Below, in pieces: positions 14,201-63,900 of a DNA stretch of 64,000 nucleotides (positions within the stretch are counted from its first letter, which is position 1; every line of letters begins with the position of its first letter). This DNA comes from Mytilus trossulus. Lineage: Eukaryota. Under the pieces are notes generated by a model. That model was not told where the DNA came from. It ran no database searches and worked only from the letters and a program-made list of their open reading frames with translations. The stretch lies in contig NC_086380.1 in NCBI RefSeq assembly GCF_036588685.1, positions 10,277,347-10,341,346 on the forward strand. The letters are read 5' to 3'. Position numbers and translations under genes: made by a program.

Positions 14201-14262
14201 TTGTAAAATGATATCAATGTGTACATATATTCAAGTGAGATTCTTAACCTCAAACATTTCAG

Positions 14263-18435: not shown

Positions 18436-18482
18436 GAGCGTCACTGATGATCTTAATTAGACGAAGCACGCGTCTGGCGTAC
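18436..18482 (+). ncRNA. Degenerate hammerhead ribozyme motif (upstream partner of the dimer)
   Basis: gagcgtca-CUGAUGA-ucuuaauuagac-GAAGC-ACGCGUC|uggcguac. G10.1 is lost and the GAAA box is mutated to GAAG, so it is probably catalytically impaired. Confidence 0.5.
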
Positions 18483-18810
18483 TAAATTATAATCCTGGTA
18501 CATTTGATAACTATTTGCACAACTGGATCAATGCCACAGCTGGTGGACGTTTCGTCTCCAAGGTTAACGCCAGCCCAGAAGTCAATACTTCGGTGTTGAC
18601 ATGAATATCAATAATGTGGTCATTTTATAAATTTTGTTTTTACAAAACTTTGAATTTTTCTAGATACTAAGGATTTTCTTATTTTGCCGTATTTGGCACA
18701 ACTTCTTGGAATTTGGATTATAAATGCTTTTCAACTTTGTACTTGTTTGGATTTATAAATTTTTTGATATGAGCGTCACTGATGAGTCTTATGTAGACGA
18801 AACGCGCGTC
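18475..18810 (+). mobile_element. Retrozyme-like unit (~336 nt) delimited by two hammerhead cleavage sites (head-to-tail HHR dimer 18436-18818)
   Basis: Two HHR copies lie in direct orientation 336 nt apart with a homologous intervening sequence. The unit is also found at 63556-63859. This size and arrangement match small non-autonomous circRNA-forming retrozymes reported in metazoans. Confidence 0.6.
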
Positions 18811-18818
18811 TTGCGTAC
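18771..18818 (+). ncRNA. Type-I hammerhead ribozyme motif (apparently intact core)
   Basis: gagcgtca-CUGAUGA-GUC uuaugua GAC-GAAA-CGCGCGUC|uggcguac. All invariant positions are present (C3 U4 G5 A6 N7 G8 A9; G12 A13 A14 A15.1; U16.1-H17 as GUC). Helix II is a 3-bp GUC/GAC with G10.1-C11.1. Helix III is the palindrome ACGCGCGU, as in dimer-acting Penelope-like-element (PLE)/retrozyme HHRs. Helix I pairs GAGCGUCA with UUGCGUAC. The predicted cleavage site is after C18810. Confidence 0.7.
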
Positions 18819-21800
18819 TAAATTATAATCCTGGTTCCTTTGATAACTATTAAGTTGCACTTATCCTCTTTGGAATTTTATTGAAACCATTATAATTTGG
18901 TTGGCATTGTGTAAGACATTCGTCATTATTAAAACCAATGTCATTTCAACTGATCGGACGGAGCTTGCGTTTCATTTACATAAAGACAGCCTATTGAAAG
19001 TTGTGTGTGATAAGGATGATGGCCTCTATAATTATAATTGATTTTTAATCACCTATCAGTGTCACAAAACGGATAATCACATACTGAGTGTATGATATTG
19101 GATGAATAACTGGATATTTCATTGACGAGTTTATCACGACACACCTGTCTGTGGTTGGGCAGGTATTAAATAAGCGATCCAGTTAACCTCGACCAGTTAA
19201 GTGAAATAAATCAAATAATACAACAGATAATTTGAGTAAAGTAATAGGTAGATAAAATAATGATTTCATTTATTTGATGGAACAATATTGCCAATCAGAT
19301 TTTGGTTTAACGTGCCAGACTTTTTAAAAATTATCAGTCAATTTGGAGAAAAAAAGTGAAACATGACCGAAACAAAACACCCACCTAACTTTCCTTTTTT
19401 AGTTAGAAATTTGAAATGATTTGTTCGTATGTGTCTGATAATTCAAGAAATCTCTGGATAACATTTGGTTAGAATGATAGCAAATTACATAGTACTATAT
19501 CTTGAAAAACAACAACAGGAAAACGAAACGGACATATATTTGCGCATTATTATACAGTTTGATGTACTCTTGGTGTACTCTGATGTTCTTCCTAACTTAT
19601 GTTTACTGTCCAAGGGGCAGTAACTCTACATCTTAATAATAGATTGTGGAATACATAGTATATTATACTTCTTCAAAGGTTTTTTGTATATTCTCTTTAA
19701 AGAACATAATTATTTTGTAAATGATTATAACTTAAGAAATTTTCGCCCAAAATTGTATTTTCGTTCTTCTGAATCATTTTGTAACTAGTGATTATTTCTA
19801 AACAGTTTATGAAAACACAACAAAGATATTTTGCACGAGGTTCAAAATATGATTCTTTTTACTGCATCATTTTTTTCTTAAATATAGCAATGGACGAATT
19901 TGAACAAAAGTGCCGCATCGAAGGTGAGTCTCACCAATGGGCCAGTTATAGAAAACAAACGTTCATTCACAAATATATCATTTAAAGAAGGACCCAAATG
20001 CATCATCTTTGTTTTATTAATCATCTCAATACTGAAACGTTTACTTTCCTAGCCTTTGTTCTGATTTAAGCAAACATCTTCACATATATACAATCATTTT
20101 GGTTTTTGTTTATAAACTTGCAGTCTTGGTTTTTTTTTAAATTTGGAAATAAAATAAGGACAGCAACACTGAAGTAGTTGTCTTTAATTTATTTCAACTA
20201 ATTATAAGCATCTTTGTTTTTTTCATATCCATTCAATTTTAAATATCTGAACATTTTATATATGTACGTGAAATTCCACCGTTCTTCTGAATATGCGAAG
20301 CAAATTTTCAAATTATTTAAACTGATCAATTGATATTGCATGTAACGCTAAGTATCTATAATATCTTAATACCGAATTAAATTAAGATCTAGTTTATAGT
20401 CTGATTCATTAGAATGATGACAATGTCTATCCCGTTTTAGTGTTTTAATTGTCCTGGGCTTTGTTGGTATTAAACAAATGTTAACTTCTATTCCCACGTT
20501 ACCGTTGTACATTGGAAAGCAATAAAGAATGGCTTATCGCTGTCATGACATTTACTACGATTCGCCGTTTACATTGACTTAAATATATTATTGACACTCC
20601 ATCCTGTAGCATACTGTTGCAAATCTCTTCCTGGAAGTTTTCTCAAGACAAGTATCTTATGTACCTTTAATCGGTTAAATGAATTGATTTGCTAGTTTGA
20701 AAGTTAGATTGATTTTTGTACGTTTTAATGTTTAACGGAGGTTTGCTACTCAGTTTACAAAACATACAAGTTTTCCATAACACTAGTATATATTGATATA
20801 AGATTAATAAAGGAACAAAACAAAACAAAATATATAGGTCAATGTGCTTGTTTTCGAGATAATAGCCATTGAAATTTTGGCATGAAATTGTACTCTCTTG
20901 ATTTTTCATAGCTTTATCATTGACAAGTTCTCAAAAACTATAAAAAAAAAATTACAAGGATTTTATAAAACTGTTACAGATGACTTATAAGTATACATGT
21001 AAAAGAATTATAAAAAGAAAAATGGGGGTCAATGTGCAAATGTTTTAAGGCATTCAAATGGGTAAACCAGAGGATTCTGAATATCTAACAAAAATTCAAA
21101 ACAATGACACGCGAACATCCTTAATGCTTGAAATGCTCATTAACATGTTTTATTTCTTCTAACTTATCGTATGTACTATCTTACTTAAGAAGCATGTAAC
21201 TTTGATTTTCATCAGTGCTCATTTTTTGTATTTGAAATAAATAAACGTTCGTTGTTTTTGCGTATAATTTGATAACTATTTATCATTCAGGACCTTATTT
21301 AATTCCTCAACGGTATGTGTGAATTATTGAAGCCATATGATGAGCTATATTAGAAAATTATAATATAGTTTTTGTTAAGGTGGAAAGTTTCTTTGATTGA
21401 CATCCTTATTTCTAAACTCAAATGTTCTCAATCGTTAAATTCATAATAAAGTTCAGTTTCCTTTCAGTCTTATGATTTTGTTTTTTAAATTACATGGCGA
21501 GGCACGATGTATACCATAAAATACTTACTGCACATTTGTTGATGATTCATTCTTAAAACAATTTAAGTTATTTTCTCAATGAAACATACATTTCTTGTTG
21601 TACTTGAAATATATAATTATTTATATCGTGCATTCCAATTATATCATACATCATACAAAAGATATAAAAGATCCACATATACATTTGTATAATTTGTTTT
21701 TCTCATCAGTTCTACATTATAACGTATTAGTTCTTTCGGTCAGTTATATTTGTCAGTACACTCTGTCGTTTATTCTTTATTTCCAGATTAACATTGGTAC

Positions 21801-28894: not shown

Positions 28895-29575
28895 CTGAAA
28901 ATATATATAGAACATTGTAGTAACTTTATGGGAAATGTAAAGTCAAACATATTTTGTTATCCAAATTACGATCGCTATTTATCCGACTTATTGTTTACAC
29001 ACTGGTCAATAGGAGAAAACATATTCTCAAGTATAGTTTTCTGTTTTGTGGGCTTTTTCGTTGATCTTTCAACCCCAAAGCCAAATATTTTACCAACAAA
29101 ATGAAGTCTAGCAACAAGTATAAAGGTAAAACAGAGAATCTACAAAAGAAAATTCTACATGTCTATCGACAGAGCTGAAATTCTGCCTCAAGTATATTTT
29201 TGATAGATTTTTATCTTAAGTCTTTCAGCAGTCATCTTCTTTTTTATATATTCGAATATTTGTTTGCCAACTCATCTTACATTTTGTAAAGATGGTAAGC
29301 CTAAATTCAACAATGTATAAGACTACGTTACCCTTGCAGTGATGATTATTTTATGGTGTTTATTGCATAAATGTTGACAGAAACTCCGATCTTTTTGGTT
29401 GACCGCAAATTCACTTATAAAAATGATTAAAGAATAACATTGTATGTTAATACATTAAAAAGCAAAGGTACCATTAGGGCATAGCACTTGTTTATATAAA
29501 CCAATTTTTCATTTATAGTGATATTCATCATGCCGCTTTGTTTGTTAAACCTGCAAATCATATTACAGGACTTAC

Positions 29576-29942
29576 CTGCCGATGTTTGTAGATATAACAC
29601 AAGTGAACTAATGCTGTAGACGTATCTCTCTCTGATACAATTTATCAATATTCCCAATATCACAGTGACTCCAAAAGAAAATGCTCCTGTAGAAATTAAC
29701 AGAAACGAAGCTTGCCACGCTCCAGATGGTATGTTTGCTAGACCAAATGTTCCGCCGTATGTTTGGCACCGACTTTGAATTTGTTGATCCTCGGTTGATA
29801 ATCCCTCACAGAATACTGTCAATCCAAATGAATGTATATGGTTATTGTGTATATACCATGCAGGGTTAAATATACAAAATATTGTTAAAATTGTTATAGC
29901 AATTGTCAACAATATCCATATGGAATACACAAGTTTGTTCAT
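29576..29942 (-). CDS. Four-transmembrane membrane protein (PMP22/EMP/claudin-superfamily-like), coding exon 1
   Basis: Minus-strand ORF MNKLVYSIWILLTIAITILTIFCIF...NPAW..FGLTVFCEG...C...AWQASFLLISTGAFSFGVTVILGILINCIRERYVYSISSLVLYLQTSAG. It ends at a strong donor GGCAG|GTAAGT (plus 29571-29580 'cttacctgcc'). It contains two hydrophobic TM segments with a Cys-containing first loop (G-L-x3-C-x12-C). Confidence 0.6.
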
Positions 29943-31700: not shown

Positions 31701-33789
31701 ACACATTTTAGAAAAGACTGTCCTTATGAAAATTGAAACATAAGCTCCACCCGATCACTTAAACACACATTGGTTAAACTTGAATTTACAAAACATCAAA
31801 GTTGCGCTGGTATTTGAAAATAGTCGAATCAGGATTTTTTTATAGCTTGCATACGAATATTAATTCGTAATAATGCATTATGAATAAACTAATTTAGTAT
31901 ACTAGTATTACTTTTAAGTTGTTTGCAATAGCGTTGTCAGTTTATTTTCGATTTATGAGTTTGATTGTCCCTCTTGTATCTGTCGTCCCTCTTGTATATG
32001 TATGATACATTTATAGCGTAATCATACATAGTACACGGTGTAAATATGTATGGTTCACAGAATAATAATATTTGTTTCACTTTTAAATTTAAATAATTCA
32101 GGATTGTCGATGGTAGCCCTCATTCATAAAGCAGAATCAAAATAACGTTGAATTGTATAAGGCCGTTAAATGATATTTGTTATGCTTGTTTCACCTTTAA
32201 ACATTTCAAGACATCTTTTATTGACGAATACTCCATATCTTCTGTTATTTTAAGTTCAACATCTTCCGGAATATGGAGCTTCATCTTTATACAAAAGAAT
32301 CAAATGTTAGTCTGATTCCGATATCTGTCATACGATAGTCAATTATCTGTACTTTTTATACGTGGAAAGAATCCTTATATATAACAAAGCCTTTTATTTA
32401 CCTCATTAATGCAGCATCATTCTAATGTATTTCTTCTCAACAATTTCTCCACTGATTTATTGGATTATTTGTGATAAGAAAGCTTTCCATATACATAGCG
32501 TGAAACATCGAGACATATCCGCTCCTTCCACCTGATTTGTTTGACATTTGAATAATAACGTTTACATACATCTGAAGTGGAAATATACAATGCTGTCATT
32601 ACTGTAAATGTGATAAATTAGATCAGAAAGAACGTGCCTGGTAATTAAGTAACATCAGATTATAATTGAAACCCAATATATTCTACATAAAAATCGTATT
32701 TCATATATTGATAGAATACATAAAATATAGTTATATACTAAACATCAAAGTTGCGCTAGTATTTGAAAAAAATCGAATCGGGATTCTTGCATACGAATAT
32801 AAAATCCTAATAATACTTCACGACGAAATTGATAAAGTATTTTACTTTTTTATAGTTTATGTACCAGCGTTTAAATCTCATAAATCCATTGAAGATGATT
32901 AAAAAATACAAATCAAAGTAAACCAAAAACATTGAATGAACTTGAATCTGGTTATCCCAGGATGCACGATAAAAGAGGGACGAAGAATACCAGAGGGACA
33001 TTCAAACTCATAGATCGAAAATAAACTGACAACGCCATGGCTAAAAATGAAATATCGTCAATAGGCGTATCTTGCTATTCATGCACAATACAACATTTTC
33101 ATTTCAACTTAGTCAAAATGGCAAAATATGGATAAGGGCACATTATTTCTAAATATAAGATTAAAAAAATATTGCACTATAGAGCTAATCGTAAGACAAG
33201 TCATTTTAATATGCTGATCTATATAATCAATAAGGTATTAAAACCACGTCGATAAAGCCTTCAGCTTAATAAATGAACAATAAATGCATGCTCTTTGTTC
33301 ATTTGAAATAATGACCAAATATGAGCGGAATCTTCTTTCAAGGCTTGTCAGTTTTTTTTACTTGAGTTAGAATGTCTCTTTGGTATCTTTCGTCTCTATT
33401 TCACTTAAACTAAAATAGATATATACATTATTATATTGCAAAAGTGTCCAAAGTATTTGATCTGCCACGTCCGTCATTTCTTATTTATTTACATCAATTT
33501 TATTACCAATCAATTTTGGGATTCAGAGTTATTGTTGAACGTCTTCCTCTAAGGTGAAGTCGTCCATCTGTGTCAATATCGATGAGGAGACGAAAGTATG
33601 AAGCAGCCCTTTAGTAGTATCATTAATGTAAAGTTCAAAGGGATATATGAAATGAAAGTACTAGTTGAAATATGGCGTATTCAATGATAGGACATCGTCA
33701 ATACATCTGAAAGTAATTTCGCAAGGTGCATTTTCTCTCTGTGTTTTAGAAGGTTTTGAATGAACTCTTATTCATACGAGTTCAATAAA

Positions 33790-34015: not shown

Positions 34016-34674
34016 AATTCCGTTACATTTACATGATGCGTTAAATAAACAGTCACAATCAATAAAATAGTCAAAATTTGGGAACATCAGTCATCATCGT
34101 ATAACAATTTAACAGGACACAACAACATCTACTATCTACGAACACATGGATTGATTTGAGTGTCTGACGTCAGAAAAATTATATACGTCACATAAATTTG
34201 TCGTTCAATGTGCATACAATAGTTATCCAAAGTACCTGGATTATAAACAATTTTAAATTTTACATAGGCAATGAGCGCAGACAGGGTTAAAAAATCAAAA
34301 GTATGTAAGTAAATGTGCACACAATAAGTACCGATTGGAATACCGATTGTCTGTCAAAAAATCAATCCTAGTAACTCAACAAATTTAGAATCAGAAATAC
34401 TCTTATCACCCAAAAATTGAAAAATCCCATTTTGACGGAAAGGCTTTCTTATAATGAGACGATATAGTCGATTGAGCATGAAAAATCGTAGTGTAAAGCA
34501 TGAAAAATCAAAGGTCTTATTCTTGCTGCAAAATTGCAAAGATCGAGACCTAAGATTTAACAGGAGATCTTTAGAATTTGTTAGAATTTACATCTGATTA
34601 ACACCACTAGTATATCTCATCACAATATTTTCGAGAGCCATATTATATTTAGAAAGAATAGTGGTCAGCACTTA

Positions 34675-38214: not shown

Positions 38215-39300
38215 AAAAGAGGGACCAAAGATACCAAAGGGACAGTCAAACTCGTAAATCTAAAACAAACTGACAACGCCATGGCTAAAAATGAAAAAGA
38301 CAAACAGAAAAACAATAGTACACATGACACAACATAGAAAACTAAAGAATAAACAACACGAACCCCACCAAAAACCAGGGGTGATCTGAGGTGCTCCGGA
38401 AGGGTAACCAGATCCTGCTCTACATGCGGCACCCGTCGTGTTGCTTTTGTGATTACAAATCCGGTAAAATTCTAATTCAGTAGGTCAAATTCATGAAAGG
38501 GAAGGGGATTGTAGCTACGACGTAAGGAACATATCCGATATCATTTGTGAAAAGGTTATTCCATAACGGTCAACCAACTCGTGATGGCGTCCGTAAAATT
38601 TACGAAGGGATGATTTCAACTTCACTATTTGGAACTCTTGGTTTAATAGCTTCCTTGTGAGCAGTAACCCTCTATCAAGAAAATCATGATAGGAAATGCA
38701 AGCACGGAAATATCGTATCAATTGGGACATATATACCCCGTATGCAGGTGCTGCTGGAATGTTGCTACTTAAAAATGGAAAGTTCACAATTGGAAAGCTG
38801 AAATCATCTCTTTTGTCGTAAAGTTTTGTCTTCAACCGACCCTCATTGTCAATTTCTAGATGTAAGTCAAGATATGAAGCCGACTTAACTGTATCTGTAG
38901 TATCCTTTATCTCCAATTCGATGGGATAGATGCGATCAACATAGTCACCGAATTTTGAATTGTTTAGTGAAAGAACGTCATCTATATAGCGGAAAGTAGA
39001 GTTAAAGGATATTGCTAACTTCTTATCTTTCTTCCTAAGAAGTTCCTGCATGAAGTCAGCCTCATAATAATAAAGAAACAAGTCAGCAAGTAGAGGGGCA
39101 CAGTTTGTTCCCATTGGGATGCCGACAGTCTGTTGAAAAACACGTCCTCCGAACGTAACAAATATGTTGTCAATCAAGAAATCAAACATCTTGATAATAT
39201 CGGTATCAGAGAATTTTTTATTTGAATCAGAATGATTCTTTACAAGGTAGGAATATATAAAGTATATTATAATGATTTGTGTCGCGTTCTAAACTAGTTT
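38215..39300 (-). mobile_element. Decayed retroelement copy: RT fragment plus 3' tail that is a family-C SINE-like sequence
   Basis: The RT ORF stop at 38515 is followed in minus sense by ~300 bp (38215-38465). That stretch equals the family-C short repeat (GGTGCTCCGGAAGGGTAACCAGATCCTGCTC...GGCACCCGTCGTGTTGC) seen many times elsewhere in the window. Confidence 0.55.
38515..39189 (-). pseudogene. Reverse transcriptase domain fragment of a retroelement (Penelope-like motif pattern; class uncertain)
   Basis: ORF with GIPMGTNCAPLLADLFL (an 'xMG..xAP..AxLF' motif, not the QG..LSP of LINEs) and FRYIDDVL (a Y-x-DD catalytic box). Its C-terminal region KLYDKRDDFSFPIVNFPFL...PAYGVYMSQLIRYFRAC is shared with the ORF at 42097-42600. 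The N-terminal RT motifs are missing, so the copy is truncated or decayed. Confidence 0.6.
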
Positions 39301-41455: not shown

Positions 41456-42610
41456 TTATAAAATTGAGAATGGAAATGGGGAATGTGTCAAAGAGACAAC
41501 AACCCGACCAAATAAAAAAACAACAGCAGAAGGTCACCAACAGGTCTTCAATGTAGCGAGAAATTCCCGCACCCGGAGGCGTCCTTCAGCTGGCCCCTAA
41601 ACAAATATATACTAGTTCAGTGATAATGAACGCCATACTAATTTCCAAATTGTACACAAGAAACTAAAATTAAAATAATACAAGACTAACAAAGGCCAGA
41701 GGCTCCTGACTTGGGACAGGCGCAAAAATGCGGCGGGGTTAAACATGTTTGTGAGATCTCAACCCTCCCCCTATACCTCTAACCAATGTAGAAAGGTAAA
41801 TGCATAACAATACGCACATTAAAATTCAGTTCAAGAGAAGTCCGAGTCTGATGTCAGAAGAAGTAACCAAAGAAAATAAACAAAATGACAATAATACATA
41901 AATGACAACAGACTACTAGCAGTTAACTGACATGCTAGCTCCAGACTTCAATTAAACTGACTGAAAGATTATGATTTCATCATATGAACATCAGGCATAA
42001 TCCTTCCCGTTAGGGGTTTAGTATCATACCATCATAACATATATGAGAAGAACATAACCCGTGTCATGCCAACAACTATTTTTAGAATAAATGTGTTTAG
42101 TTCCGACGCAAAGACCTTATCAGTGACTCAATATTAACGCCAAAATATGCAATCTTTAATGACTTGACAACAGTATCGTAATTATATCCCTTCTTAATAA
42201 GTCTATTCAAAGGTTTTGTAAGTTTTTGAAGTGAATACTGACAGCTTTGTGCTTTATACAGAATATTTCCATAAAAAATTGGATGTGAAATACCTGAACG
42301 TATAAGAAGTCTGCATGTTGAGCTATATTTACGAATGATGTCTTTATACCGATGATAAAATTTAGTAAATGTTTTGACTAGTTTGTGATATCGAAAACCC
42401 TGGTGTAATAATTTTTTAGTAATACATAAATTTCTCTCGTTAAAATCTAAAACATTGTTACATACACGACTGAATCGTACAAGTTGAGATATATAAACAC
42501 CGTTAGATGGTGACAAGGGAACGTCACCATCTAAAAACGGATAATTAACGATAGGAAATGAAAAATCATCCCTTTGATCATAAATTTTAGTATTTTAGTA
42601 ACTATTTCTA
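41456..42610 (-). mobile_element. 5'-truncated retroelement copy of the same RT family: C-terminal ORF plus ~640-bp 3' tail
   Basis: The minus ORF 42097-42516 extends in-frame to ~42600 as ...KIYDQRDDFSFPIVNYPFLDGDVPLSPSNGVYISQLVRFSRVC..., homologous to the 38515-39189 ORF C-terminus. Its 3' tail (41456-42096) is ~98% identical to 55476-56100. The tail terminus 'aaaattgagaatggaaatgggg' (plus) recurs as short 3' fragments at 36135-36245, 25145-25200 and 49165-49200. Confidence 0.6.
42097..42516 (-). pseudogene. C-terminal ORF fragment of the retroelement polymerase
   Basis: It is homologous to the C-terminal 90 aa of the 38515-39189 RT ORF (GVY[IM]SQL[VI]R[FY].R.C....F..R.L..TKKLL.QG). No upstream RT core is present. 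Confidence 0.5.
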
Positions 42611-45600
42611 CGTTTCCTTGTGTGTTTTTGTTGCACCTCGGTCGGTGTTCCTGTTGGTCCTTAGATTTCCTCTTACAGTTGATGTGTTTCCCTCGGTTTA
42701 GGTTTGTGACCTGGAGTTTTTTACTCTAAATTAATTCATGACTTTCGCACACCGGTATACTACTGGATCATATTTTCCTCTTTTTGATCATTGACGTTGA
42801 ATCGAATAGACATTCTGCAAAATGGATGACAAAAGTATGTTGTGTTTGTACATAGTAATTGTCTCCACAAAACCACAAAATTAGATATTTACAAAAATTT
42901 CAAAGATGGATTGAAATGTCGTTAAATCGTCTTTTGATTCATGTATTTCAATTTCTCTATGTCATCTTTTCAACATTGATGTATTACATACGTCAATACA
43001 TGGTATAGAAAAAGAAAGATTTGAAATTGATCCTTCATTGTCTACACAAAGAATGCTCGTTTTATACATCCCCATCTGATGTGTCCACACCGTTTTACTT
43101 AGCTACCAAGGTATTTATCAAGGTTGGTGATTGATTCGAACAGGTTGGGAACAAACACCCACATGGGTGATAATTAACCCATTTTGTGTTTCAAAGTCTA
43201 TATGGGATATAAATTTACTGAGCAAACAAGAAGTTGTAGTAATTAAGATATTGAAAATATAATTTGGTCGTTATTGATTTTTCCAGAAAAAGGAACACGT
43301 TTCTCTATAGAATCCTTTGAAAACAGAATATTCCAAAGGATCATACTCATAAAGATATTCAAATATGTTGGAAACAAATGTTGCTGCCTTTTTTTAACTA
43401 TAAATGCATATCCCATTGGTGTATTTAATAATCAACTAGATATGGTAACCATATGAGTTAATGTTCAAAACATGTTGGATGGTAGATAAAAGACGAAACG
43501 TGAAATGAGAGTATAAAAAAGTACTGTTGTATTCCAAGGTTAAATTCCAGCTGTAGAATAGTGATTTATTTTACGTACTTTAACTGGTCTAGAATTTTTG
43601 AATTATTTTGTCATGAAGAATGATTTGATAGAGGTTTCTTCAATGATCACTCTATCAATTATCACTTACAGAAGAGGAATTCACATATCCAACCATAATT
43701 ATAAAAACAATCAAGACTATTTCAAAAATGCATTATATGAAATATTTGTTACTAGCTGTTATATCAAACACCACTAAAACAATAATCTTCTATTAAATGA
43801 AAGAACAACGATGACCAAGGACATTTAAACTTTTAAGTCGATGCAAACGTTGAAAAAATAGAAGCATTTAATAAAACAAGCGTATAATAGTACAAGCGTA
43901 TGGTAAAAGAAAGCGTATAATTATTGTGATTATGGACTCTCCGAATTGATTTTTCTCTAAGTTTAGTATTTTTGTGATTTTACTTTTCATTACTGTTGCA
44001 AACACAGATAATGGAAATATTCTATTTCAACCGATATTATTTTCCCTTGTTTATGATTATGAGGCAACGTTGATCAACAATTTTGTTTTGTTTTGTTTTT
44101 ATTTTTCAATATTCTGTCGACTAAATATTATGCACTGTCTATTTTAATTCGCTTCATTACTTTTATATTCCATCGATGACTTTCTCCGTACACTTGTATG
44201 GACATTAACAATATTTATGTTTGATTTCGAGTGATAAATCATATCGAATGGATGAGAATGGTAATTAAATCTCCTCTCTTTTTGTATTTTACTAATATTT
44301 GTGTTGAATATATAAGTCTTCACCAGTCTAGCATTTTCTATAGATTGATTGATCGGACATGGTTTTAACAATGTTAAAGAATTAATGGAAGAAAGGTCAT
44401 TACCCAGAAAGAAATTTCAGTAGTATTTTTTCACAGTGTGGTTTGTTTTGATTCATGGCAACATTTTCTCCTTTAATAATGAATTCCATTATGAGACTAA
44501 CTTACACAATCCTATCCTTTGGACAGAACAATTTTAAAACATATGCATTTGCATATCTACTAACTAATTATCTAACCTACAAAAATAATAAACATTTCTT
44601 TAAAAGGAAAGATCTGTCCAAATAAACCTAATTAAAAGCCTGGGAGCATTGAAAAGACAGGCGAAAATTAACAAAATGTAAGGAATGTTTAAACCCATAA
44701 CAGGCATACTTCGAAAATAGACTGACAACGTCAAGGCTTTAAGGATGTATTCTTCTGACTTTTCAGTCTCGTTCAGTCTCGTTGAAATCTCGTTCTTAAA
44801 TCATTTCCAAAACATATGATAGAGGTGGAAAATATCAATGAATTTTAAAAAAAATTATAATCAAACATAACTCTGTGAAAAAAATGTGTATTTACCATGA
44901 ACGGTTTTTGAATAATCCAGTTTTCAAATTTTACGACCATTCAAGTCAGTATTTTTAGTCAAAATTTTGAGAAAGTGGGTGAGGGATATAAAAATGATTT
45001 TACAAGAATAATATACATCCCATCTCATTTTGGTCTTTTCAAATTTCTTAGATATGTATTTTTTCAATCATTTATAACAAAAAAGTTGAATTAATATGCA
45101 TTTTGTTCTTTAAAATGAGAAAAATCATAAAAATACAAAATTGGCAGTATGGTAAATTTTACACAAAAAAGCATCAAAATATGATAAAACTTTCTTATAT
45201 TAACACCTACCTATAGTTTTTGTAAGTTAAATTTATTCAGATTGGTCCACTTCATCTTTATGGAAAGTATGAAAAAAAGTTTAATTGTGGAACTGTGATT
45301 TTTTTCATGATATTAGCCCAAAAATAGGTAAAAATCAATGAAAAGTGAGAAAATCATCAAAATTGGGCATTTTCAAAGGGCCGTAGCAAAAAAAGAAGCA
45401 CACCACCATATGATTTTTTCTTCACCAATTGTTTTGTTAAAGTCTTATAAACCTAAAAATCAGGTTAAGAAAAAAAGTTTAATTCTAGAAATGTTTGGCT
45501 CCTCAGAGGTGTACATCCTTGACATGATTTATGTCATACTGACATGATTTATAACAAACCTCAACATAGTTTCTGAATAAATTTTGAAATTAAAAGAAAC

Positions 45601-46698
45601 TAGAGGTGTAAACTTCCTCCGGCTAAGGTGACCTTGAATTAACCTTACTATTATGTAGGTGTTGTTGTTTGCCCACCTGTTTTGTTTCTTCTGCATCATT
45701 AGCTCGGAAATGTTTTGATTTTATCATTCTTGATGAAGGCAAATCAAGAAAGGGGTCCAGACATAAGACATCTATATCGGTTTTTGTTCTAGTATACTTT
45801 AGACCGTAGTAAATTTTCATTTGACCAATTCTACTGTTTACCTTTATTATTATTTTATTCTCACAAAATTTTCTTTAGAAATTCTTTATTTAAGATCTCA
45901 ATTTTGATAATAAAATGATTTCCAAGAAAACATCACAAACCAGTTTTGTTTTAACCTGAAATAGTTTTATTAGTAAGTGGCATTGTGTATATTGTATATC
46001 CACGATACATTAAAATACACGACAACGAAATATTGGTAACTATATATTCTCTCTTTCAATTCAAACGAATATTAGAACCTGAATGCATAATTAAGTGTGT
46101 CACTGAAATGACTCGAGAGAATTTGTCGTCTGTGATCAACAGCTGAGAGAAATGCCAGGCTCCTATGTTTTGTGGTTTATTTAATGAAAACTAAATACAA
46201 AAGACTTGCTTCAATTCCCTGGCTATCATTTCGCCTAAACACAAAATTAAAACAAAATTAGTTTTTGGTTTTGTAATGATTTCAGTTCCCGCTGAATAGA
46301 ACAATATGATGAATAATGGGAAGACGCAGATAGAAGGAATTTTTGTTTGTAATCGGTATGACTCATATTTTAAATTAAAGAATTTTGTTCCCTTTCTTTT
46401 TTCACATTGTTTTGAGACAGAAAATCGCTCTGTCACTTGTCACGTGTTCTGAGGGATGCATGGGAGAATGAATAGTTCTTTTTTTTCAAATACTACTTTC
46501 ATGCTACGGCTTAACAACAAAAAATCGTCGACCGTTGAAAGAAAAATATAATGCATAATAATTATAGAGTAAAACACATAAAAAATATTTTATAACATAA
46601 TGTCAGTTGCTGTAAATAGTATATATCAAGATCAACTTTAAATAATCACCAATGCTCTTCAACTTTGTACTTGTTTGGCTTTATAAATATTTTGATAT

Positions 46699-46746
46699 GA
46701 GCGTCACTGATGAGTCTTATGTAGACGAAACGCGCGTCTGGCGTAC
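46699..46746 (+). ncRNA. Hammerhead ribozyme motif (intact core) in a solo retrozyme fragment (46650-46790)
   Basis: gagcgtca-CUGAUGA-GUCuuauguaGAC-GAAA-CGCGCGUC|uggcguac. It is identical in its core to the 18771 copy. The flanking 50 bp upstream and 'ctaaattataattctggtacttttgataactat' downstream match the retrozyme unit. Confidence 0.65.
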
Positions 46747-48289
46747 TAAATTATAATTCTGGTACTTTTGATAACTATCTACAATATATATATATGCATT
46801 TCACGTACAATCATTTGTTACATTGTAAAACGTTCATCGACACAGGTGTTACAATATATGAAAAACAATGACTATGTGTTATACTCATCGGGTTTTTCAA
46901 TTATCCAGATAAAAATTAATTAAAGGTAATAAGTGAATAATGTAGATATACTTTTGGTGTAACTTTATACCAAATTCTGTCTGTGAAGTTTAACAAATTT
47001 CCAAACTTTTATAACATTGTAATAATTCGTCGACACCGGTGTTCTGAAGCAATAATGACTCCATGTTATATTTCTTCAGGTTTTGCCTTATTATTTAGAT
47101 AAAGTTGATTAGATATAATGAAGTATTAAATTGTAGATATATTTATATTATATTCGAAATTTCCTTTTTGAAATTAAGAAAATGGAAAAACTTTATTTTT
47201 ACGTTTGTATTGTTTACATGCTCAATATATTTTTTATTTATATTCAAGGATGTTTAAAGAATCAGAAAATTACCGACGACATATTTTTTTGTGTTTTCTG
47301 TCAAGTAATAACAATTTCGTATTTAAATAGGTCTGTTTGTGTGACAATCTTTTGTGATAATCAGCCTTTCTGACAATATCTTTATTTTCTCAACAATGTA
47401 TTTAACATTTAACATTTTTTTCATTATTTGCACATGAGTCTATGAGGGATTGATCAATACAGAGTAAAATTAGAATTACAGATTATAATGTTGTCAATTC
47501 AAGAACCAATAGTTTCTTTTAATTAAGAAACCTCTTTGGTATATATTCTTCTGTCTATGAAAAAAACACCATCAGCAATGTGTTGCACACTGCATAACTC
47601 CCTAAGCTGGTTTTTTTAAAGGTGTGTATCACATGTTTTAGATTATTTCGAATAGACAGAAAATGTATTGCAGTCATTCCTTGTAAGATTTTCATTGTTT
47701 TCGACTTTTTAAACATGTAGACTATGGAAATGCTTATTTACAATATTTGTCTAATCTGCTCTATAAATAATTTTGTTCTTTTTATTCAATAGATCAACTA
47801 TTCGCATACAATGTGTTTGATTTTAAATGATTAAGAAATAAGCTTCTTCTATCTATACAACTTGATACATTTATTACCATTTGCACGATCCATTTAAAAT
47901 TTCTTTTGATTTGTAAGATTAAAGCAAAGATTAAAGTGTAAAAGTCTTTCAATTATTGGAAACATTTTCTAGTTGACATTTGAAAAATAATCTTTTAACT
48001 CTAATCTTACTACTTATTTCAAATCAGTTTAATTAAGGTCTTACGAAGGCATCCATCTGCTATCAAAGAACAAAAATAATCAACTCGCTCATTTTAGTAA
48101 ATAGACATACATGGTAATAGTAAGAGAGATATGAAGCTGATACACACGAAGTAACAATTAAATGAAACATGTTACGATCAAGTGATAAACGAGAAGTGGT
48201 TTTATTTTAAATTATATTGTCGTTAATATTACGACTGAAACAATTGTTTAAGAAATAAATGTTGTTTTTATGTATTTCAACAAAGACAG

Positions 48290-48520: not shown

Positions 48521-49861
48521 TTCTTTTCGATGAATCATCAACACAGTTTGAGTTATTTGTTGTTGATACAATTAGCATTAACAGATCTAGAGTAAACAAA
48601 TCAAGAAAAAATCAAGAAAACCGAACTTTACTATGTTTACTATGATACTATAATAGCATAATCTCTTCATTAGAGATTAACACAAGTTATATGTACACAT
48701 CCTCACAAGAATATTAAGATTTTATATTTCCACCAGGAGCGCGTTATGATGGCGTTTCCATTACCGAATATCTCATAAAAGAAAACACTTCAATGATTGT
48801 CACTGTTTTTTCTATGTTTATAAGACAAGCTTGGTACACATATTAAATCTATAAATATTAAAATATGCTTTCAGTTCACGTCAGTTTTATCTTTTTGCCG
48901 CGTGCTTTCAAAAACATTTGTTCTCAAACCAGTTGTTTGCATGATACAGGTTATGTTCTATGATACTAAACCCCTTACAGGAAGGATAGTGTTTGGTATT
49001 GATATGGTGAAGACACAATCTTTCAATCAGTTTAATTGAGGTCTGAAGCTGAAATGTCAGAAACTGCTAGTAGTCCTTTATTTATTTATGTATCATTGTC
49101 ATTTTGCTTAGTTTCTTTTGTAACCTATTCTGAAATCGGACTTGGACTTCTTAAAAACTACGTTTTACTAAAAATTGAGAACTGAAATGGGGAATGAACG
49201 TATTGCCGTGTGTTTGATTTTCCTTATTGGATAGCGGTATTGGGGCAAAATTGAGACATCATAAAACATTTTAACCCCGCCGCATGTTTTAGCCTCTGTC
49301 CTGTCTTAGGTTCTGTATGATTTTCACTTTTCGTTCTTATACATTTCTTTGAAAATTCACTGATTTTTTAAAAATTTTAGTAAGGTGTCAGCTGAAGACC
49401 TCCTTTGGATGCGGGTATGTATCACTGTGTTGTAGACTTATTGGTGACTTTCTCCTGTATTTGTCAATTTTGTCATATTGTTGTCTTTTTGACACATTTC
49501 CCAGATCTATTTTATTTCTTGTTTTTACGTTGCTTGAATATAGTTTTATGTGATGGACTGCATGTGATCCTAAAATAAACATTATTTTAATAATGATACA
49601 CAATATATCTACCTATCTTTGACATTTGTATGTTTTGTTCACACATTGTTTTTTATGCGACTGTCATGCTAGTGGGACGTTTAACTAGCGATTAAAACAT
49701 TTTCTACATAAGCTTGTTCATTCTTTTGATGTGTTTTGAGCTTTTTATTTGGCGATTTGATTGTGAATGTTTTCTACATAACAATAACCTGTTCATTCTT
49801 TGATGTGTTTTGAGCTTTTATTTTGCCATTTGATTTGGGATGTTTTTGAAATTTTCTCGAA

Positions 49862-49898: not shown

Positions 49899-49959
49899 AT
49901 ATTCCAAATAAAAACAGAAGAGAAACCAATCATTTCATCATTGATACCAGGATTGAAAT

Positions 49960-50075
49960 TTAGCCAGACGCAAGACAATAAGACGCATCAGTGACGCTAG
50001 AAAATAAAAAAAGTTAAAAAAGTTAAAAATGCCAAATAAAGTACGAAGTGAAAGAGTATGAAGGACCAAAAATTC
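49960..50075 (-). mobile_element. Diverged reverse-oriented retrozyme fragment (HHR remnant lacking GAAA box)
   Basis: The minus strand reads agcgtcaCTGATGcGTCTTATtGTcttg, followed by a body-homologous region (ggaatttttggtccttcatactctttcacttcgtactttatttggc). Confidence 0.4.
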
Positions 50076-53000
50076 CTTAAATTTTTGCAAAATACTGCTT
50101 AGGTTATCAATGTATTCAATATTATATCACTAGCATGATTGAATCATTAGACATCAAGACATTTGTTTAAACTAATCCGAAGAAATACATCAAGTTTCAC
50201 TAAACAAGAAAACTCATTTGCATAATCCACTTAAGGAATATTTGTTTTTCCAATATTTAAACAGAGTGGTTATAATAAATCAGACTGATTGACACTTTAC
50301 ATAATGTTTCGCAAATCTGATGCCATCAACTTGGAAAGTTTTTTAATCAAATTGATGCGAGACAACACACAGTGACTGACAGTTTAGATTTCCGTCTGTC
50401 GGATTCTCAAATGCATGTACGCTTTAATTCATTTAACGAATCATCAATGTCACTATTCATTTTACAAATTCAACGTTGACTAACATTTTTACAACATTGC
50501 TTTATTATAATTTTACAGACCGACGATTCTACATTTATAATATTTAAAATTTTAAGATCCAGTTATACATGTATACATATATACAATTCTTCATAGCTAT
50601 ATGAAAAAAAGCATATTTCATTATCATTGTTTGATTCACGTTCAATAGCATATTAATATATATATGTAATGAAATGGTATGAACAGTAAAATTGGCGTCA
50701 AAAATCATTCAGAAAGAACGCCGAACAAAGCGGTATTTTTGTGATTTTCTCATATTTCATGAAACAACATAATAAAGATCGATAACAAAAAATGGCATTT
50801 TCGAAAACAAAATTAAAAACAGAAAAATATAAATTTCAAGCATTTAAAGACGAATAATTGAAAGCCAGAGATATATAAGAGAAAAAAAAAGCTGTTTGGC
50901 CAAAAAAAAATAGCCAATCAATATGAAGTCAAATTTATCAGAGGAAGTTGATACCTTATTTTCTTAATAATTTAACACAAAAAATGCTCAAACAGATCTT
51001 TCCGGGACAACGACAGAAATCGACAGCTCATTTAAAGTTCACTATCATGACGATGTTTATGTGTCCCAACTCACGAGAGACATCTTTTCTATCTCGTAGA
51101 TGTTTAGATACCAGATAGATAGGTGGTTTGATGAGTAATTTTACAGATTGGTACTATTTCCAATTGTGATATATCGGTAAACATATGTTGCCTTTGTCTT
51201 ACAGAACTGTTACATAAATATCAAATTAACTTGTTTTTCGACTGATTGGAATGAGTTATTTAGGAAAACCTACTTTTTAACATTTTCAAACGGTATACAA
51301 AAACAGTCATATCATACATAATATTTCCTAGTATCAAATTTCGAATTGAGATATGAAAATTTGGAAAGCTTAATTTATTTGGTCTGTTATTTCCATATCA
51401 TAAAATTCCTATAAATTCAAACTGATATTACGAACATTTGATATGAAACCATTGTGTACTAATCTGTTAATCTATTTAAAGATAATTTAATTGTGAAAAC
51501 AGGAAAACGTCCTAACAAATGACGTAATGACCTTACAATCTGAAACACTTTTCAAATTAATATTAGAAAAAATAGATTTATACATCAACACAATTCAGGA
51601 AAATCTCATATTGGGAGGATTTATTCTGCTAAATATCTCAATTTTCTGAGTAGACTGTTATGGATTGTATCACGTTGTTTATCTTTCCCTCTCTTTCCTT
51701 TCTGTTGCTCAGTCTTGATTTGTCTACCTTGTGTTTGTGTATATTTCTCTCTTCTCTCTTTTTCTCGTTCTTCTATCAATTATCAATATTTGTATGCTGA
51801 GCATATTTTCCCTTTTTGTAAATTTTAGTGAAAGGGTAAATCATATGATGAAAAATGGAAAGTTTAGCATAGAAACGTACGATATTCATTCGTGGCGAAT
51901 AATGATTCGTTCCCGAGTTTGAAAAAAGCTCGTTTAAATGTTTCTCTCTTTTCAATTGATTTTTTATTCCATAAAACTCTTCGTTCTTATGAAGTGTGGA
52001 GTCATTCCTTGATATTTTCTTCTTTTCGTCAAATAAATAGGTTCATAAAGTTTATTTGTATAATATATGTCGCAGTTTGAAGCTTTTACAATATTTTATT
52101 TTGTTTAAGAATTCATACTATACCATGAATGTGCATACATCGTCTGTATCAGTTATTCAATGACGATGACATGGTAACCAATCAAGCACCAATGATAAAC
52201 AAAAATATATTTTGAGATCATCTTATGTAAACTTATCTTTAGTTTGTCAAAAGAAGTTACTAGTTAGAAACTAATAGACATTATAAAATATTTGTTTTTA
52301 ACGACTTTGACTGGCTATAAAACTCGTATGGTCGTTTTGCTCAGTCTTGAATAATCTGCGTTGTGCTTTGTGTACTTATCGTTCTTTTGTTGTCATTGCA
52401 TTGTCAGTTTGTTTTTGGATTTATAAGTTTGAAAATACCTTTGGTATATTTCGTTTATCTTTGAATTGAACACTTACTCCTTCATAAACATAATAACAAA
52501 GAGACACCAATACTGGACATGGTCGAGATGACTACATTTTTTATTAGTACTTAACACTCTGCTTAGTGAATTGTGGTTGTAAAATAAGAGCACACATAAC
52601 ATTTTTAAATCCATTAAAAGTTACACTAAAGAGGTTCAAACATCTTTTTAAATGAAATTAAATTACTTAGTTTGTGTTTAAGATCAACTCGACATGAATG
52701 CAAAATTTAGTTCTGAATGTGTACGTTTAAATAGCACATAAATATAAATAGTGTGATTGCAAAAGACGCAACGTTGAAGATCAAAGTATGTGATGGTAAC
52801 ACTTTTATGTCACCATAATGCATTCAACAACTAGCAAACCCCATGACGTATGGTGAGGTTAAAGGCCAAAAGGATGACAAAATGCGCAAAAAAAGAGAGA
52901 AACCAAAAGACGGCATCGATTGTACTAAACCTATCAAAGACATTTAGTCAGTAGATTTTCAGTCCACGAACAGGCCAAATAAGTATTTGGTGCGAATAAG

Positions 53001-55475: not shown

Positions 55476-56290
55476 CTTGATAAAATTGAGAATGGAAATG
55501 GGGAATGTGTCAAAGAGACAACAACCCGACCAAAATAAAAAAACACAACAGCAGAAGGTCACCAACAGGTCTTCAATGTAGCGAGAAATTCCCGCACCCG
55601 AAGGCGTCCTTCAGCTGGCCCCTAAACAAATATATACTAGTTCAGTGATAATGAACGCCATACTAATTTCCAAATTGTACACAAGAAACTAAAATTGAAA
55701 TAATACAAGACTAACAAAGGCCAGAGGCTCCTGACTTGGGACAGGCGCAAAAATGCGGCGGGGTTAAACATGTTTGTGAGATCTCAACCCTCCCCCTATA
55801 CCTCTAACCAGTGTAGAAAAGTAAAAGCATAACAATACGCACATTAAAATTCAGTTCAAGAGAAGTCCGAGTCTGATGTCAGAAGATGTAACCAAAGAAA
55901 ATAAACAAAATGACAATAATACATAAATAACAACAGACTACTAGCAGTTAACTGACATGCCAGCTCCAGACTTCAATTAAACTGACTGAAAGATTATGAT
56001 TTCATCATATGAACATCAGGCACAATCCTTCCCGTAAGGGGTTTAGTATCATACCATCATAACATATATGAGAAGAACATAACCCGTGTCATGCCAACAA
56101 CTGTTTTTAGAATAAATGTGTTTAGTTCCGACGCAAAGACCTTATCAGTGACTCAATATTAACTCCAAAATATGCAATCTTTAATGACTTGACAACAGTA
56201 TCGTAATTATATCCCTTCTTAATAAGTCTATTCAAAGGTTTTGTAAGTTTATGAGGTGAATACTGACACCTTTGTGCTTTATAAATTGAT
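55476..56290 (-). mobile_element. Second, more 5'-truncated copy of the retroelement 3' region
   Basis: It is ~98% identical to 41456-42280 over ~815 bp, including the last ~60 codons of the ORF. Homology stops abruptly at ~56283, the 5' truncation point. Confidence 0.65.
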
Positions 56291-60539: not shown

Positions 60540-61120
60540 AATTGATAAATCGATAGAGAAAAAAACAAATATGGGTTACAAACTAGAACTGAAGGAAATG
60601 TATCAAATATAAGAGAACTACGACATAACAGAGACACAACACCGAAACGTAACACACAGAGTAACGAACTATAGTGTAATAGTGGTAATTTTCCTGAATT
60701 GGGACAGGGCATTTTATGAAGAAAAAAAGTGGGTTGAACCTGGTTTTGTTGAATGCCAAACCTCCCGCTTTATTGGCAGTGTTAATTATAACATTAAACG
60801 ACAGGGTTAAAATGACAAAACCAGATAACTGGGAGAAAATATAGGACAGAGAAACAAACGAATAACAGCCATCCAAAGGTAACAGCTCGAAAAATATTTA
60901 TTATCACCAGTCGCACTACGTCCACACAAAACTATGCTTAGTTGTAAAAGGTTTGAAAGCTACCAAGTTGAAGATCGCCGAGGATCACAAGTTCCAGAAA
61001 GTTGTGAGGCCAGGGTTATCCGCCTGCGACAAAACATCATTATTATCAAGAATAATACATTGTTTTGCAAACAGTAAATTTTATAAAATGACTATATAAT
61101 AGATATACATGATTTAACTT
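60540..61120 (+). repeat. Family B copy plus retrozyme-related 3' segment
   Basis: It reads aaaggcaacagtagtataccgatgttcaaaattgataaatcgat...cctgaattgggacagggc...gggttgaacctggttttgttgaatgccaaacctcccgc. The segment 60950-61120 is homologous to 9120-9320. Confidence 0.5.
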
Positions 61121-61734
61121 AAGTGGTGACTAGTTATAGAATAAAAAACGAATAAATTACAAAATCACAGCCCTGTTACCCATACCATAGTCAATGCAAC
61201 GCCCAAAATGACGTCATATATAAATTTCTAAAACGTGTTCCGAAAATTAAGAGAATTTGGATAAAATTCAAGATTAGATTTGTATGACTTATCTAACTTA
61301 TATAGATAACAGTGAAAAATATAATACTAATTAATATTCAATTGAAGTAGTAATTAGATAATTAATTGTATTATCTAGCTTTGTGGTTGTTTCTTCTGAT
61401 TAAACTGCAAACCAAATATATAGTGTAAATTTCTTTGATCCAAAATTAAATCTACTAAATGAACTGGATGAGTAGTTATTCCCCAATACAACACAAAAAT
61501 ACAAAAGAAAAATACTAGTTACAACAACAAATGTAAAACAAATGTAATAGCCTACCCTTCCGGATACTGTTCCTTGTTCTGTTTTGTATGCTGACGTTTC
61601 TCGTATTGTCTTTTTTGTTTGAATTGCATGGCGTTGTCATTTGAATTTCAATTAATCAGAATGTTGGAATTTTTCGCCTCTCTTTTATAATCTAGTTGAA
61701 GGTTTATTAAAATAAACTCATCAAAGATACGAGG

Positions 61735-61870
61735 ACCAAATTTTATATATACGCCAGACGCGCGTTTCGTTTAGAAAAGACTAATCAGTGACGCTCGAAT
61801 AAAAAAAAGTTAAAAAGGCCAAATAAAGTATGAAGTTGAAGAGCATTGAGGACCAAAATTCCTAAATGTT
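61735..61870 (-). mobile_element. Reverse-oriented retrozyme fragment with a dead HHR (61752-61796)
   Basis: The minus strand reads gagcgtcaCUGAUUAGucuuuucuaaacGAAACGCGCGUCugg. G8 is changed to U and the helix II 3' strand is mutated. Adjacent sequence matches the retrozyme body. Confidence 0.5.
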
Positions 61871-62514
61871 TTGTCATTCCTTTTCACAAGATACATTCCC
61901 TATAAATGCTTTATCTAAGGACCCCATTTCGATATATCTAATAAGCCATCAAGAATGGTAATTCCATATAACATGCGATCCCCAATTTAATCCACAAATG
62001 TTTGATTCACTAATGGAGTCGAAATGATAAGATAGAAGCAAAAGATACGCAACGGATCTTTTAACTCATGATAGGTCGAATATAAAATGAACATTCCATG
62101 GCTTTAACGGAAATATACCAACAGAAAAACAGACAAATAACAGTACATAAAACATACTACATACTACATAAAATTACATATAAATATAAAAACTGCGCAA
62201 CACCAACCCCACTAGAAACTGGATCATCGCATGGCTCGTTATTTGTAAGCAGATATTGCTCCTTATGTGGTATCCGTCGTGTTGCTCATGCAGTTACAAA
62301 CACGCTAATAAGTCTATTTTGAAAGGTCAGATTTGGAAAAAAAGGAACGGAACGACAATTGGAACATATTCGTCGATACCTGTGAAAAAGATATTTTATA
62401 ACGCTTAACAAACTCTTGATGGAGTCCTTAAAATTTACGAAAGGGTTGAATTTATGAAACTGACAGGATTTATAAAACCTTTATAAATTGTCTGTTAGTA
62501 GATTTATGAATAGA

Positions 62515-63555: not shown

Positions 63556-63900
63556 CGTATGCTGGTGGACGTTTCGTCCTCGAGGGAATCACCAGCCCAG
63601 TAGTCAACACTTCGGTGTTGACATGAATATCAATAATGTGGTCATTTTTATAAATTTCCTGTTTACCAAACTTTTGAATTTTTCGAAAAACTAAAGATTT
63701 TCTTATCCCAAACTAGATTACCTTAGCCATATTTGGCACAACGTTTTGGAATTTTGGATCCTCAATGCTCTTCAACTTTGTACTTGTTTGGCTTTAAAAA
63801 TTGTTTGACATGAGCGTGACTGATGAGTCTTATGTAGACGAAACGCGCGTCTGGCGTACTAAATTATAATCCTGGTACCTTTGATAACTATTAGCAGTCT
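63556..63900 (+). mobile_element. Retrozyme family copy (single unit, 5' boundary ~63556)
   Basis: It is homologous along its length to 18530-18850 (gctggtggacgtttcgtc...cagcccag.agtcaa.acttcggtgttgacatgaatatcaataatgtggtcatttt...), including the HHR and the shared 3' flank 'ctaaattataatcctggtacctttgataactatt'. Confidence 0.6.
63812..63859 (+). ncRNA. Hammerhead ribozyme motif (intact core) at the 3' end of retrozyme copy 63556-63900
   Basis: gagcguga-CUGAUGA-GUCuuauguaGAC-GAAA-CGCGCGUC|uggcguac. The unit upstream (63556-63811) is ~85% identical to 18530-18770. Confidence 0.65.

Follow-up and report, generated by a model that had tools for sequence, protein, structure and literature searches.

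The hammerhead ribozyme (HHR) motifs in a 64,000-nt stretch of the Mytilus trossulus genome (contig NC_086380.1, positions 10,277,347 to 10,341,346; hereafter the window) are, with a probability that we put at about 0.8, the ribozyme modules of dispersed copies of a mussel retrozyme without long terminal repeats (a non-LTR retrozyme), copies that would have been inserted by reverse transcriptase (RT), represent dead ends and decay neutrally. A first-pass annotation had already regarded these hammerheads as derived from retrozymes and the decayed ones as decaying insertions, and our analysis agrees with this view. The family is already known, and the novelty of the assignment is low.

Hammerhead motifs lie within copies of a mussel retrozyme

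The 48-nt string GAGCGTCACTGATGAGTCTTATGTAGACGAAACGCGCGTCTGGCGTAC was found on the plus strand at 46699-46746 without any mismatch and at 18771-18818 and 63812-63859 with one mismatch each, which bears out the earlier statement that the three plus-strand cores are essentially identical. There was no match to this string in the shuffled window, so chance occurrence of the motif was excluded, and the looser pattern CTGATGA-N6-30-GAAAC gave 4 matches in the window against 0.32 expected. The Rfam model Hammerhead_1 (RF00163) scored 33.0 bits at 46701-46744 (E 2e-6 locally), 28.1 bits at 18773-18816, 27.8 bits at 63814-63857 and 22.5 bits on the minus strand at 61751-61794, and the alignment covered every core position (CUGAUGA, GAAA and GUC) together with three helices. 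The first three of these matches show a type I topology, with helix I open, and a complete core.

Self-BLAST of the window and BLAST with a dimer of the unit revealed that every HHR core lies inside a longer repeat of ~336 nt. The window holds nine recognisable copies of this repeat, among them A18, B46, C63, D61, E49, F4, G9 and H60, to which one tail-only fragment can be added (Table 1). A18 consists of head-to-tail units with two HHRs spaced 335 nt apart. The core is broken in the upstream HHR of A18 (A15.1G, G10.1 deleted), in D61 (G8U) and in E49 (A9C, GAAA lost), where a ~14-nt deletion that includes GUAGACGAAAC has taken out the GAAA box together with helix II's 3' strand; the inactivation reported earlier for these two antisense copies is thus upheld. 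The "solo" cores of the first-pass annotation do carry a single HHR each, but they are set in 130-340 nt of recognisable repeat and not in unique sequence. Absent from that annotation were the dead plus-strand HHR of A18, the minus-strand copies F4, G9 and H60, and the tail-only fragment.

The identity of the repeat was revealed by comparison with the published sequence of Mg353 (Cervera & de la Peña, NAR 2020, PMC7229834). The reference monomer from A18 aligned with Mg353 from end to end, with 77% identity over 324 aligned positions and 47/48 identical positions in the HHR, while D61 is 89% identical to Mg353 and has a tail that matches the consensus of cloned mussel circular RNAs (circRNAs). 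Mg353 is a cloned retrozyme of Mytilus galloprovincialis for which self-cleavage with a kobs of ~0.1/min, circularisation by RtcB and abundant circRNAs have been described (PMC7229834). In the same species ~5000 HHRs, units of 350-390 bp and both linear and circular unit-length RNA have been reported, and two mussel HHR subfamilies were found to differ in loops 1 and 2 and in distal helix I (PMC7229834). Two HHR types are present in the window too, with UAUGU or UUUGU as loop 2.

The copies show the features of a non-LTR retrozyme, namely homology over the whole unit, the lack of an LTR, of a primer-binding site (PBS) and of a polypurine tract (PPT), a non-coding sequence and a low GC content (31% for the window). 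There was no open reading frame (ORF) of at least 75 aa in or near the copies, and no tRNA-like part was found in the unit. Two other classes were tried and rejected. First, the apparent "LTR" of an LTR-type retrozyme at 18428-18515/18763-18851 is the overlap of the 1.27-unit tandem. Second, a short interspersed nuclear element with a tRNA head was excluded by the missing tRNA.

One metagenome scan with the HHR string yielded copies outside the window on five contigs (L001-L005), whereas scans of viral and prokaryotic genomes found no more copies and a literature search with the exact HHR string returned no matches. The arrangement that defines a functional retrozyme, head-to-tail repeats of 150-450 bp with one type I HHR each, so that two cleavages would release a unit, was seen only in A18, whose upstream HHR is dead, and in the metagenome locus L002, which has at least 2.5 units in tandem. 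B46, C63, D61 and E49 carry one HHR each in a unit or less, and the best classification for them is as truncated derivatives of the known family and not as functional retrozymes. For annotation, this means that the motifs should be read as fragments of a very abundant and described mussel retroelement and neither as independent ribozyme genes nor as evidence of covariation.

Table 1. Retrozyme copies and hammerhead sequences in the window. Positions are those of the window.
Feature	Position	Strand	Description
Copy A18	18428-18857	+	head-to-tail, 1.27 units; truncated first unit begins just 5' of its HHR
Reference monomer (in A18)	18475-18810	+	336 nt, cleavage site to cleavage site
HHR of downstream A18 unit	18771-18818	+	core intact; C2.2/U1.2 mismatch
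Dead HHR of upstream partial A18 unit	18436-18482	+	G10.1 deleted, A15.1>G, loops 2 and 3 altered
Copy B46	46650-46783	+	5'-truncated, ~0.4 unit; common 3' terminus ...GATAACTAT
HHR of B46	46699-46746	+	complete core, fully paired helix I
Copy C63	63560-63896	+	~0.94 unit, single HHR; common 3' terminus ...GATAACTATT
HHR of C63	63812-63859	+	core intact; G2.2/G1.2 mismatch
Copy D61	61710-61876	-	5'-truncated, ~0.48 unit; Mg353/circRNA-consensus subfamily; common 3' terminus ...GAGTTTATTT
Inactivated HHR of D61	61751-61798	-	G8>U (CUGAUUAG); 11.3 G>A in helix II
Copy E49	49928-50115	-	old, 5'-truncated
HHR remnant of E49	~49960-50000	-	CUGAUGC (A9>C); ~14-nt deletion
Copy F4	4021-4185	-	unit positions ~155-304; breaks off right before CUGAUGA; 3'-deleted, no ribozyme
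Copy G9	9046-9340	-	old, ~65% identical; HHR heavily mutated (CUAGUAUG...GACAAAAUG)
Copy H60	60874-61131	-	old, 62-67% identical; HHR mostly erased
Tail-only fragment	34209-34250	-	~40 nt, no HHR; terminus ...GATAACTATT; extreme 5' truncation

G9 and H60 are the oldest retrozyme-like copies, and both start at unit position ~106. The blocks that contain them, 8786-9348 (-) and 60603-61139 (-), are 69% identical over 578 nt, so that ~270 nt of flanking similarity extends beyond the retrozyme part. This shared flank belongs to another repeat family, related pieces of which were found at 17564-17902, 7563-8000 and 42666-42765, and a composite element, or the duplication of a block that included an ancient retrozyme piece, may lie behind the two blocks.

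Pairing and folding of the ribozymes

All helix pairs are intact in the HHR of B46 only. Its helix I (GAGCGUCA / UGGCGUAC) begins at 1.1-2.1 with six contiguous pairs, two of them G·U, followed by an A/A mismatch and a G-C pair; helix II (GUCU/AGAC) has 4 bp and the loop UAUGU; and helix III has only 2 bp (A15.1-U16.1 and C-G), is closed by GCGC and lies within the 8-nt palindrome ACGCGCGU. Cleavage is predicted to occur after GUC, at 46738. The homologous HHR of Mg353, for which self-cleavage has been demonstrated (PMC7229834), differs from that of B46 at one loop 2 base and at base 1.8. In C63, C2.2 has changed to G and faces an unchanged G1.2, whereas in the downstream unit of A18 it is G1.2 that has changed to U, facing an unchanged C2.2. 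Both mismatches therefore hit one pair (1.2-2.2), next but one to the scissile bond, and each costs ~5 bits in the covariance model. The first-pass annotation had called these helix I changes compensatable, a description that does not hold, as neither of them is compensated.

Evaluation of the energy of the HHR fold and folding of dimers were used in place of minimum free energy (MFE) folding. The HHR fold has a dG of -4.6 kcal/mol in B46, -1.7 kcal/mol in C63 and +0.9 kcal/mol in the downstream unit of A18. The predicted MFE dimer of the B46 sequence is a double hammerhead formed through an 8-bp intermolecular helix III, an arrangement used by amphibian retrozymes. With a helix III of 2 bp inside a palindrome, the motif might need a partner HHR to pair with, and solo copies lack such a partner. 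The proposed hammerhead structure is based on conservation, the match to the model and homology to an active ribozyme.

Conservation of the ribozyme and decay of the copies

The conservation test was applied to the window copies and Mg353 only, which had been chosen by similarity over the whole repeat. Among copies with an intact core, the pairwise difference, with gap columns counted as differences, was 2-6% in the HHR vs 10-35% elsewhere in the repeat, with Fisher p values as low as 1e-5; for A18 and Mg353, for example, it was 3/48 in the HHR vs 110/318 elsewhere (p = 1.3e-5). When substitutions alone were counted and the three plus-strand copies were compared with the subfamily consensus, 2/144 positions differed in the HHR vs 41/636 elsewhere (p = 0.0075). 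In the old copies G9, E49 and H60, divergence was 31-54% in the HHR vs 35-47% outside it, as neutral decay that is uniform over the copy would give. Within A18, the upstream HHR has accumulated about six changes and the downstream HHR one. These results are most simply read as purifying selection that acts on the ribozyme in the source RNA lineages, with neutral decay after insertion.

The near-identity of the plus-strand cores had been attributed to recent spread or to selective maintenance. Our results speak for selective maintenance, while recent spread applies only in a relative sense, since the non-HHR parts of the three plus-strand copies lie 3.5-9% from the consensus. Thus, the near-identity most likely reflects selection in the source lineage together with relative youth, and not function at these loci. 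Constraint was visible among the intact copies as evolution of the HHR several-fold slower than that of the rest, and not as covariation, so that of the two outcomes that were together to refute the first-pass reading only the second was seen: a count of pairs on 14 copies gave a score of 0.097 vs 0.089 in shuffles, and 110/500 shuffles scored as high. The only pair that changes on both sides is distal and occurs in decayed copies, and the sample is small and nearly invariant.

Three intact cores were found on the plus strand and none on the minus strand, a contrast (post hoc Fisher p ~0.05) that is confounded with age and subfamily and is best explained by these two factors. Selection that inactivates antisense copies was excluded, because decay is uniform across those copies. 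For the same reason, and because a dead copy also exists on the plus strand, the contrast between conserved and decayed copies does not provide the mutational test that had been proposed for it; it is uninformative on individual positions.

In addition, we noted that G8 is mutated in three independent copies from two subfamilies: D61, L002 at ~650-700 (-) and L003 at ~1770-1820 (+), with the changes G8U, G8U and G8C, respectively, and with the other core bases intact in two of them. As a meaningful pattern this recurrence was rejected, since it falls short of significance in this small sample when all 48 sites are taken into account. Variants with a ribozyme made inactive at G8 might be tolerated or favoured in some contexts.

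Copy ends and a proposed route of insertion

In an alignment around the HHR, 11 terminal copies, six from the window (A18, B46, C63, D61, E49 and G9) and five from the metagenome (L001, L003a, L003b, L004 and L005), leave the unit sequence within a 3-nt span, as does the tail-only fragment. Copies of the window subfamily switch to unrelated sequence after ...GATAACTAT(T), at +40..+42 from the cleavage site, and those of the Mg353 subfamily after ...GAGTTTAT(TT), at +45..+47. Internal units of tandems (18436-18536, L002a, L002b and Mg353) read past this terminus into ...TGCACAACTGG.... The 5' ends are scattered over unit positions ~65, ~106, ~208, ~233, ~249 and ~289, and the lengths of the copies range from ~40 nt to 1.27 units or more.

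All of the insertions are contiguous across the ribozyme cleavage site. This excludes, as the template, a linear monomer that had been cleaved and was primed at its 3' end, and we infer a ligated circle or an uncleaved multimer instead. The fixed 3' end, the graded 5' truncation and the presence of some copies longer than one unit point to target-primed reverse transcription from a defined start. These hallmarks, 5' truncation, partial tandems and a short terminal tail, are those of derivatives of Penelope-like elements (PLEs), whose insertions are frequently 5'-truncated, form pseudo-LTRs (pLTRs) by partial tandems and carry a 30-40-bp tail (PMC8557442). The pLTRs of PLEs have been proposed as ancestors or mobilisers of animal retrozymes, a proposal with which the pattern agrees.

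A possible life cycle can be outlined from these features. Tandem copies are transcribed, and their HHRs cut the transcript into unit-length RNAs that a host RtcB-type ligase can circularise, steps that the literature has established for the family. The RT of a retroelement, most plausibly a Penelope-like one, would start the cDNA at one fixed site located 40-47 nt 3' of the junction, copy back over the junction and through the HHR, and stop after a stretch of variable length. The HHR lies no more than ~90 nt from the start site, so that nearly every insertion has one complete HHR, even one of 130 nt, which would explain why solo hammerheads are common; two HHRs are expected solely in insertions longer than one unit. 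Solo copies, which offer one cleavage site, are unable to release unit-length RNA, and copies such as B46 and C63 would be dead-end offspring subject to neutral decay.

We tentatively propose, at somewhat less than even odds, that the 3' terminus at +40-47 nt, shared by 11 copies, two subfamilies and the tail fragment, maps the priming site of RT on a junction-spanning RNA. Should this hold across the genome, and should it be new to the literature, it would give the proposed circRNA-templated, PLE-like integration step direct genomic support, and it would define a short 3' recognition sequence for the partner element, whose 3' 40-50 nt would be expected to match TAAATTATAATCCTGGTACCTTTGATAACTATT. 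A uniform 3' terminus past the cleavage site is not stated in the retrozyme papers that we compared, and it is a modest mechanistic detail. Together with the reading through of the cleavage site in every insertion, this uniform end places constraints on the way in which retrozymes return to DNA, a step that the literature still calls hypothetical.

Two further observations concern the surroundings of the copies. The 3' end of B46 abuts a short (TA)n run (46784-46797), and Naiad PLEs are reported to prefer (TA)n as their target; as a single case, this is only a hint. The tail-only fragment sits within an interrupted RT-like sequence with the motif ...QTIGIPIGT... at ~34310-34355, and more RT pieces were found at 33548-33714 (-). 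The position of the tail inside RT-like sequence (34209-34360 and 33548-33714, both on the minus strand) indicates nested retroelement insertions.

Weighing of the proposed origin against alternatives

Several points weigh against the origin proposed here. First, none of the HHRs reached the RF00163 gathering score of 34 bits, the best copy being 1 bit short and the mismatch copies ~6 bits, and a default Rfam scan reported only a selenocysteine insertion sequence (SECIS) element because all HHR scores lie under this threshold. Sub-threshold matches of 28-33 bits can nevertheless be true family members once the surrounding repeat is considered. Second, when the HHR was folded together with short flanks, the MFE structure was not the hammerhead fold (z ~0), and the whole 336-nt unit had z = -0.75; thermodynamics alone neither supports nor refutes the motif. 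Third, the sample is small, and the metagenome loci L001-L005 had been picked by an exact HHR pattern and were hence left out of the conservation test. Fourth, no target-site duplications (TSDs) were found at any copy, where only 5-7-nt matches at chance level occurred, so that the case for retrotransposition is drawn from the structure of the ends. The lack of TSDs weakens the model but does not contradict it, and target duplications of PLEs are variable and often undetectable (PMC8557442). Fifth, no autonomous element with the shared 3' tail was found in the 64-kb window, the tail being confined to retrozyme copies, and the RT-like ORFs of the window could not be classified as PLE. Finally, activity, transcription and circularisation of the window copies are presumed from homology with Mg353.

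A different source of the solo copies is conceivable in the family to which the mobilising RT might belong: they could be the 3' ends (pLTRs) of 5'-truncated autonomous PLEs that share the terminal sequence, and not offspring of small retrozymes. Most PLE insertions are truncated at the 5' end and then retain one terminal repeat with its HHR, retrozymes have been reported to be related to PLE pLTRs, and fragments of RT-like retroelements are present in the window; the sub-unit copies B46, D61 and E49 would fit either source. The longer copies speak against this origin, since C63 stops after 0.94 unit, A18 and L002 run into another retrozyme unit, and no copy continues into coding sequence. In addition, homology to the cloned, non-coding and circRNA-forming Mg353 extends over the entire unit, and the RT-bearing elements of the window have neither the tail nor an HHR. 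We therefore consider a PLE end to be an improbable source of these copies.

The hypothesis that a solo HHR, especially that of B46, was co-opted for cis cleavage of a host transcript and is selected at its locus, as has been proposed for conserved intronic HHRs of amniotes, is very improbable. The HHR of B46 shows 0/48 changes from the subfamily consensus vs 3/85 in its flanks, but 0 changes against 1.7 expected is not significant alone, and there is no coding ORF or exon-like sequence within several kb. The restriction of intact cores to a single strand, with every minus-strand copy dead, would also suit co-option; this contrast, however, carries the confounding described above, and A18 includes a dead HHR on the plus strand. 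Furthermore, helix I has a mismatch in 2/3 of the "intact" copies, and a palindromic helix III of 2 bp may need a second HHR, which is absent from a solo copy.

A DNA-level spread, in which satellite-type unequal crossing-over or segmental duplication multiplied the copies and no RNA intermediate took part, is just as hard to credit, for although it would accommodate the tandem units of A18 and L002, the missing TSDs and the ~270 nt of extra flank shared by G9 and H60, which might stem from duplication of a larger block, the flanks of the remaining copies are unrelated on both sides, and neither one 3' terminus with graded 5' truncation at 11 independent loci nor a tail-only fragment is predicted by it.

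Other elements in the window

SECIS_1 matches were found on the minus strand at 41981-42045 (35.6 bits, which exceeds the gathering score of 35) and 56006-56070 (32.8 bits), ~50 nt 3' of the stop codons of 5'-truncated RT-like ORF remnants that belong to one repeat family. Copies of this repeat span 41469-42098 (-), 55491-56123 (-) and 48910-49511 (+), and the ORF remnants at 42097-42516 (-) and 56122-56286 (-) share 93% amino-acid identity. Selenoprotein-encoding Naiad PLEs have so far been reported only from two clams and two spiders (PMC8557442). The SECIS/RT remnants, here in a mussel, resemble these elements, and their possible assignment to the PLE/Naiad class could not be established; no in-frame UGA was visible in the short ORF remnant.

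A further RT-like ORF of 224 aa at 38515-39189 (-) has a YIDD motif and only a weak match to Pfam RVT_1, and thousands of fragments 70-98% identical to it exist in public metagenome and genome protein sets. It belongs to a very abundant 5'-truncated retroelement family, and no upstream ORF was found for this element. The only evident host coding sequences are an HSP70-like (HSP70-12-like) ORF of 367 aa at 14208-15311 (+), which scored 19.9 bits with Pfam HSP70, just under the cutoff, and an ORF of the LHFPL family at 29427-29942 (-), which matched Pfam L_HMGIC_fpl with an E of 1.6e-10. Both are far from the hammerhead copies named in the first-pass annotation.

Comparison with known systems

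Plant LTR retrozymes are likewise a non-autonomous, HHR-processed and circRNA-forming family, but they have type III HHRs in true LTRs, a PBS and PPT, 4-bp TSDs and Gypsy-type mobilisation, none of which was seen here. The amphibian satellite 2 and axolotl retrozymes are closer in design, with type I HHRs, units of ~330-350 nt and an unstable short helix III in a self-complementary stretch through which two HHRs can pair; there is, however, no homology with them outside the core. The mussel HHR has been reported to cleave as a cloned single unit, more slowly than a coral HHR (PMC7229834).

Dispersed single units are also known among the monomer derivatives of vertebrate retrozymes (Li, Clavereau & Pollet, bioRxiv 2026, 10.64898/2026.07.22.740005), which occur chromosome-wide and are read as offspring no longer able to transpose, whereas multimers cluster. 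These derivatives come from another host group, and a fixed 3' terminus is not described in the parts of that preprint that were consulted.

The pLTRs of PLEs (Cervera & de la Peña 2014; Craig et al. 2021, PMC8557442) resemble the window copies in that a type I HHR whose helix III is very short lies near the 3' end, in that the 5' end is often truncated, in partial tandems with a truncated upstream copy before a full one and in a terminal extension of some tens of bp. The window copies differ from PLEs in having a non-coding unit of ~340 nt with no RT/GIY-YIG ORF between repeats and no sequence link to a specific PLE.

The nearest relative is the retrozyme of M. galloprovincialis (PMC7229834). 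Dispersed copies of one unit or less prevail here, whereas tandem arrays were emphasised in the Mg353 paper (PMC7229834). The main subfamily of the window is 23% diverged from Mg353, from which it also differs by a 17-nt deletion or insertion, and it has an 11-nt hairpin that is absent from Mg353 and present in the circRNA consensus. Like Mg353, the window copies are AT-rich and non-coding and include head-to-tail units, of 336 nt here and 353 nt there, and the HHR core, the stem of helix II, helix III (ACGCGCGU) and proximal helix I are identical to those of the M. galloprovincialis retrozyme.

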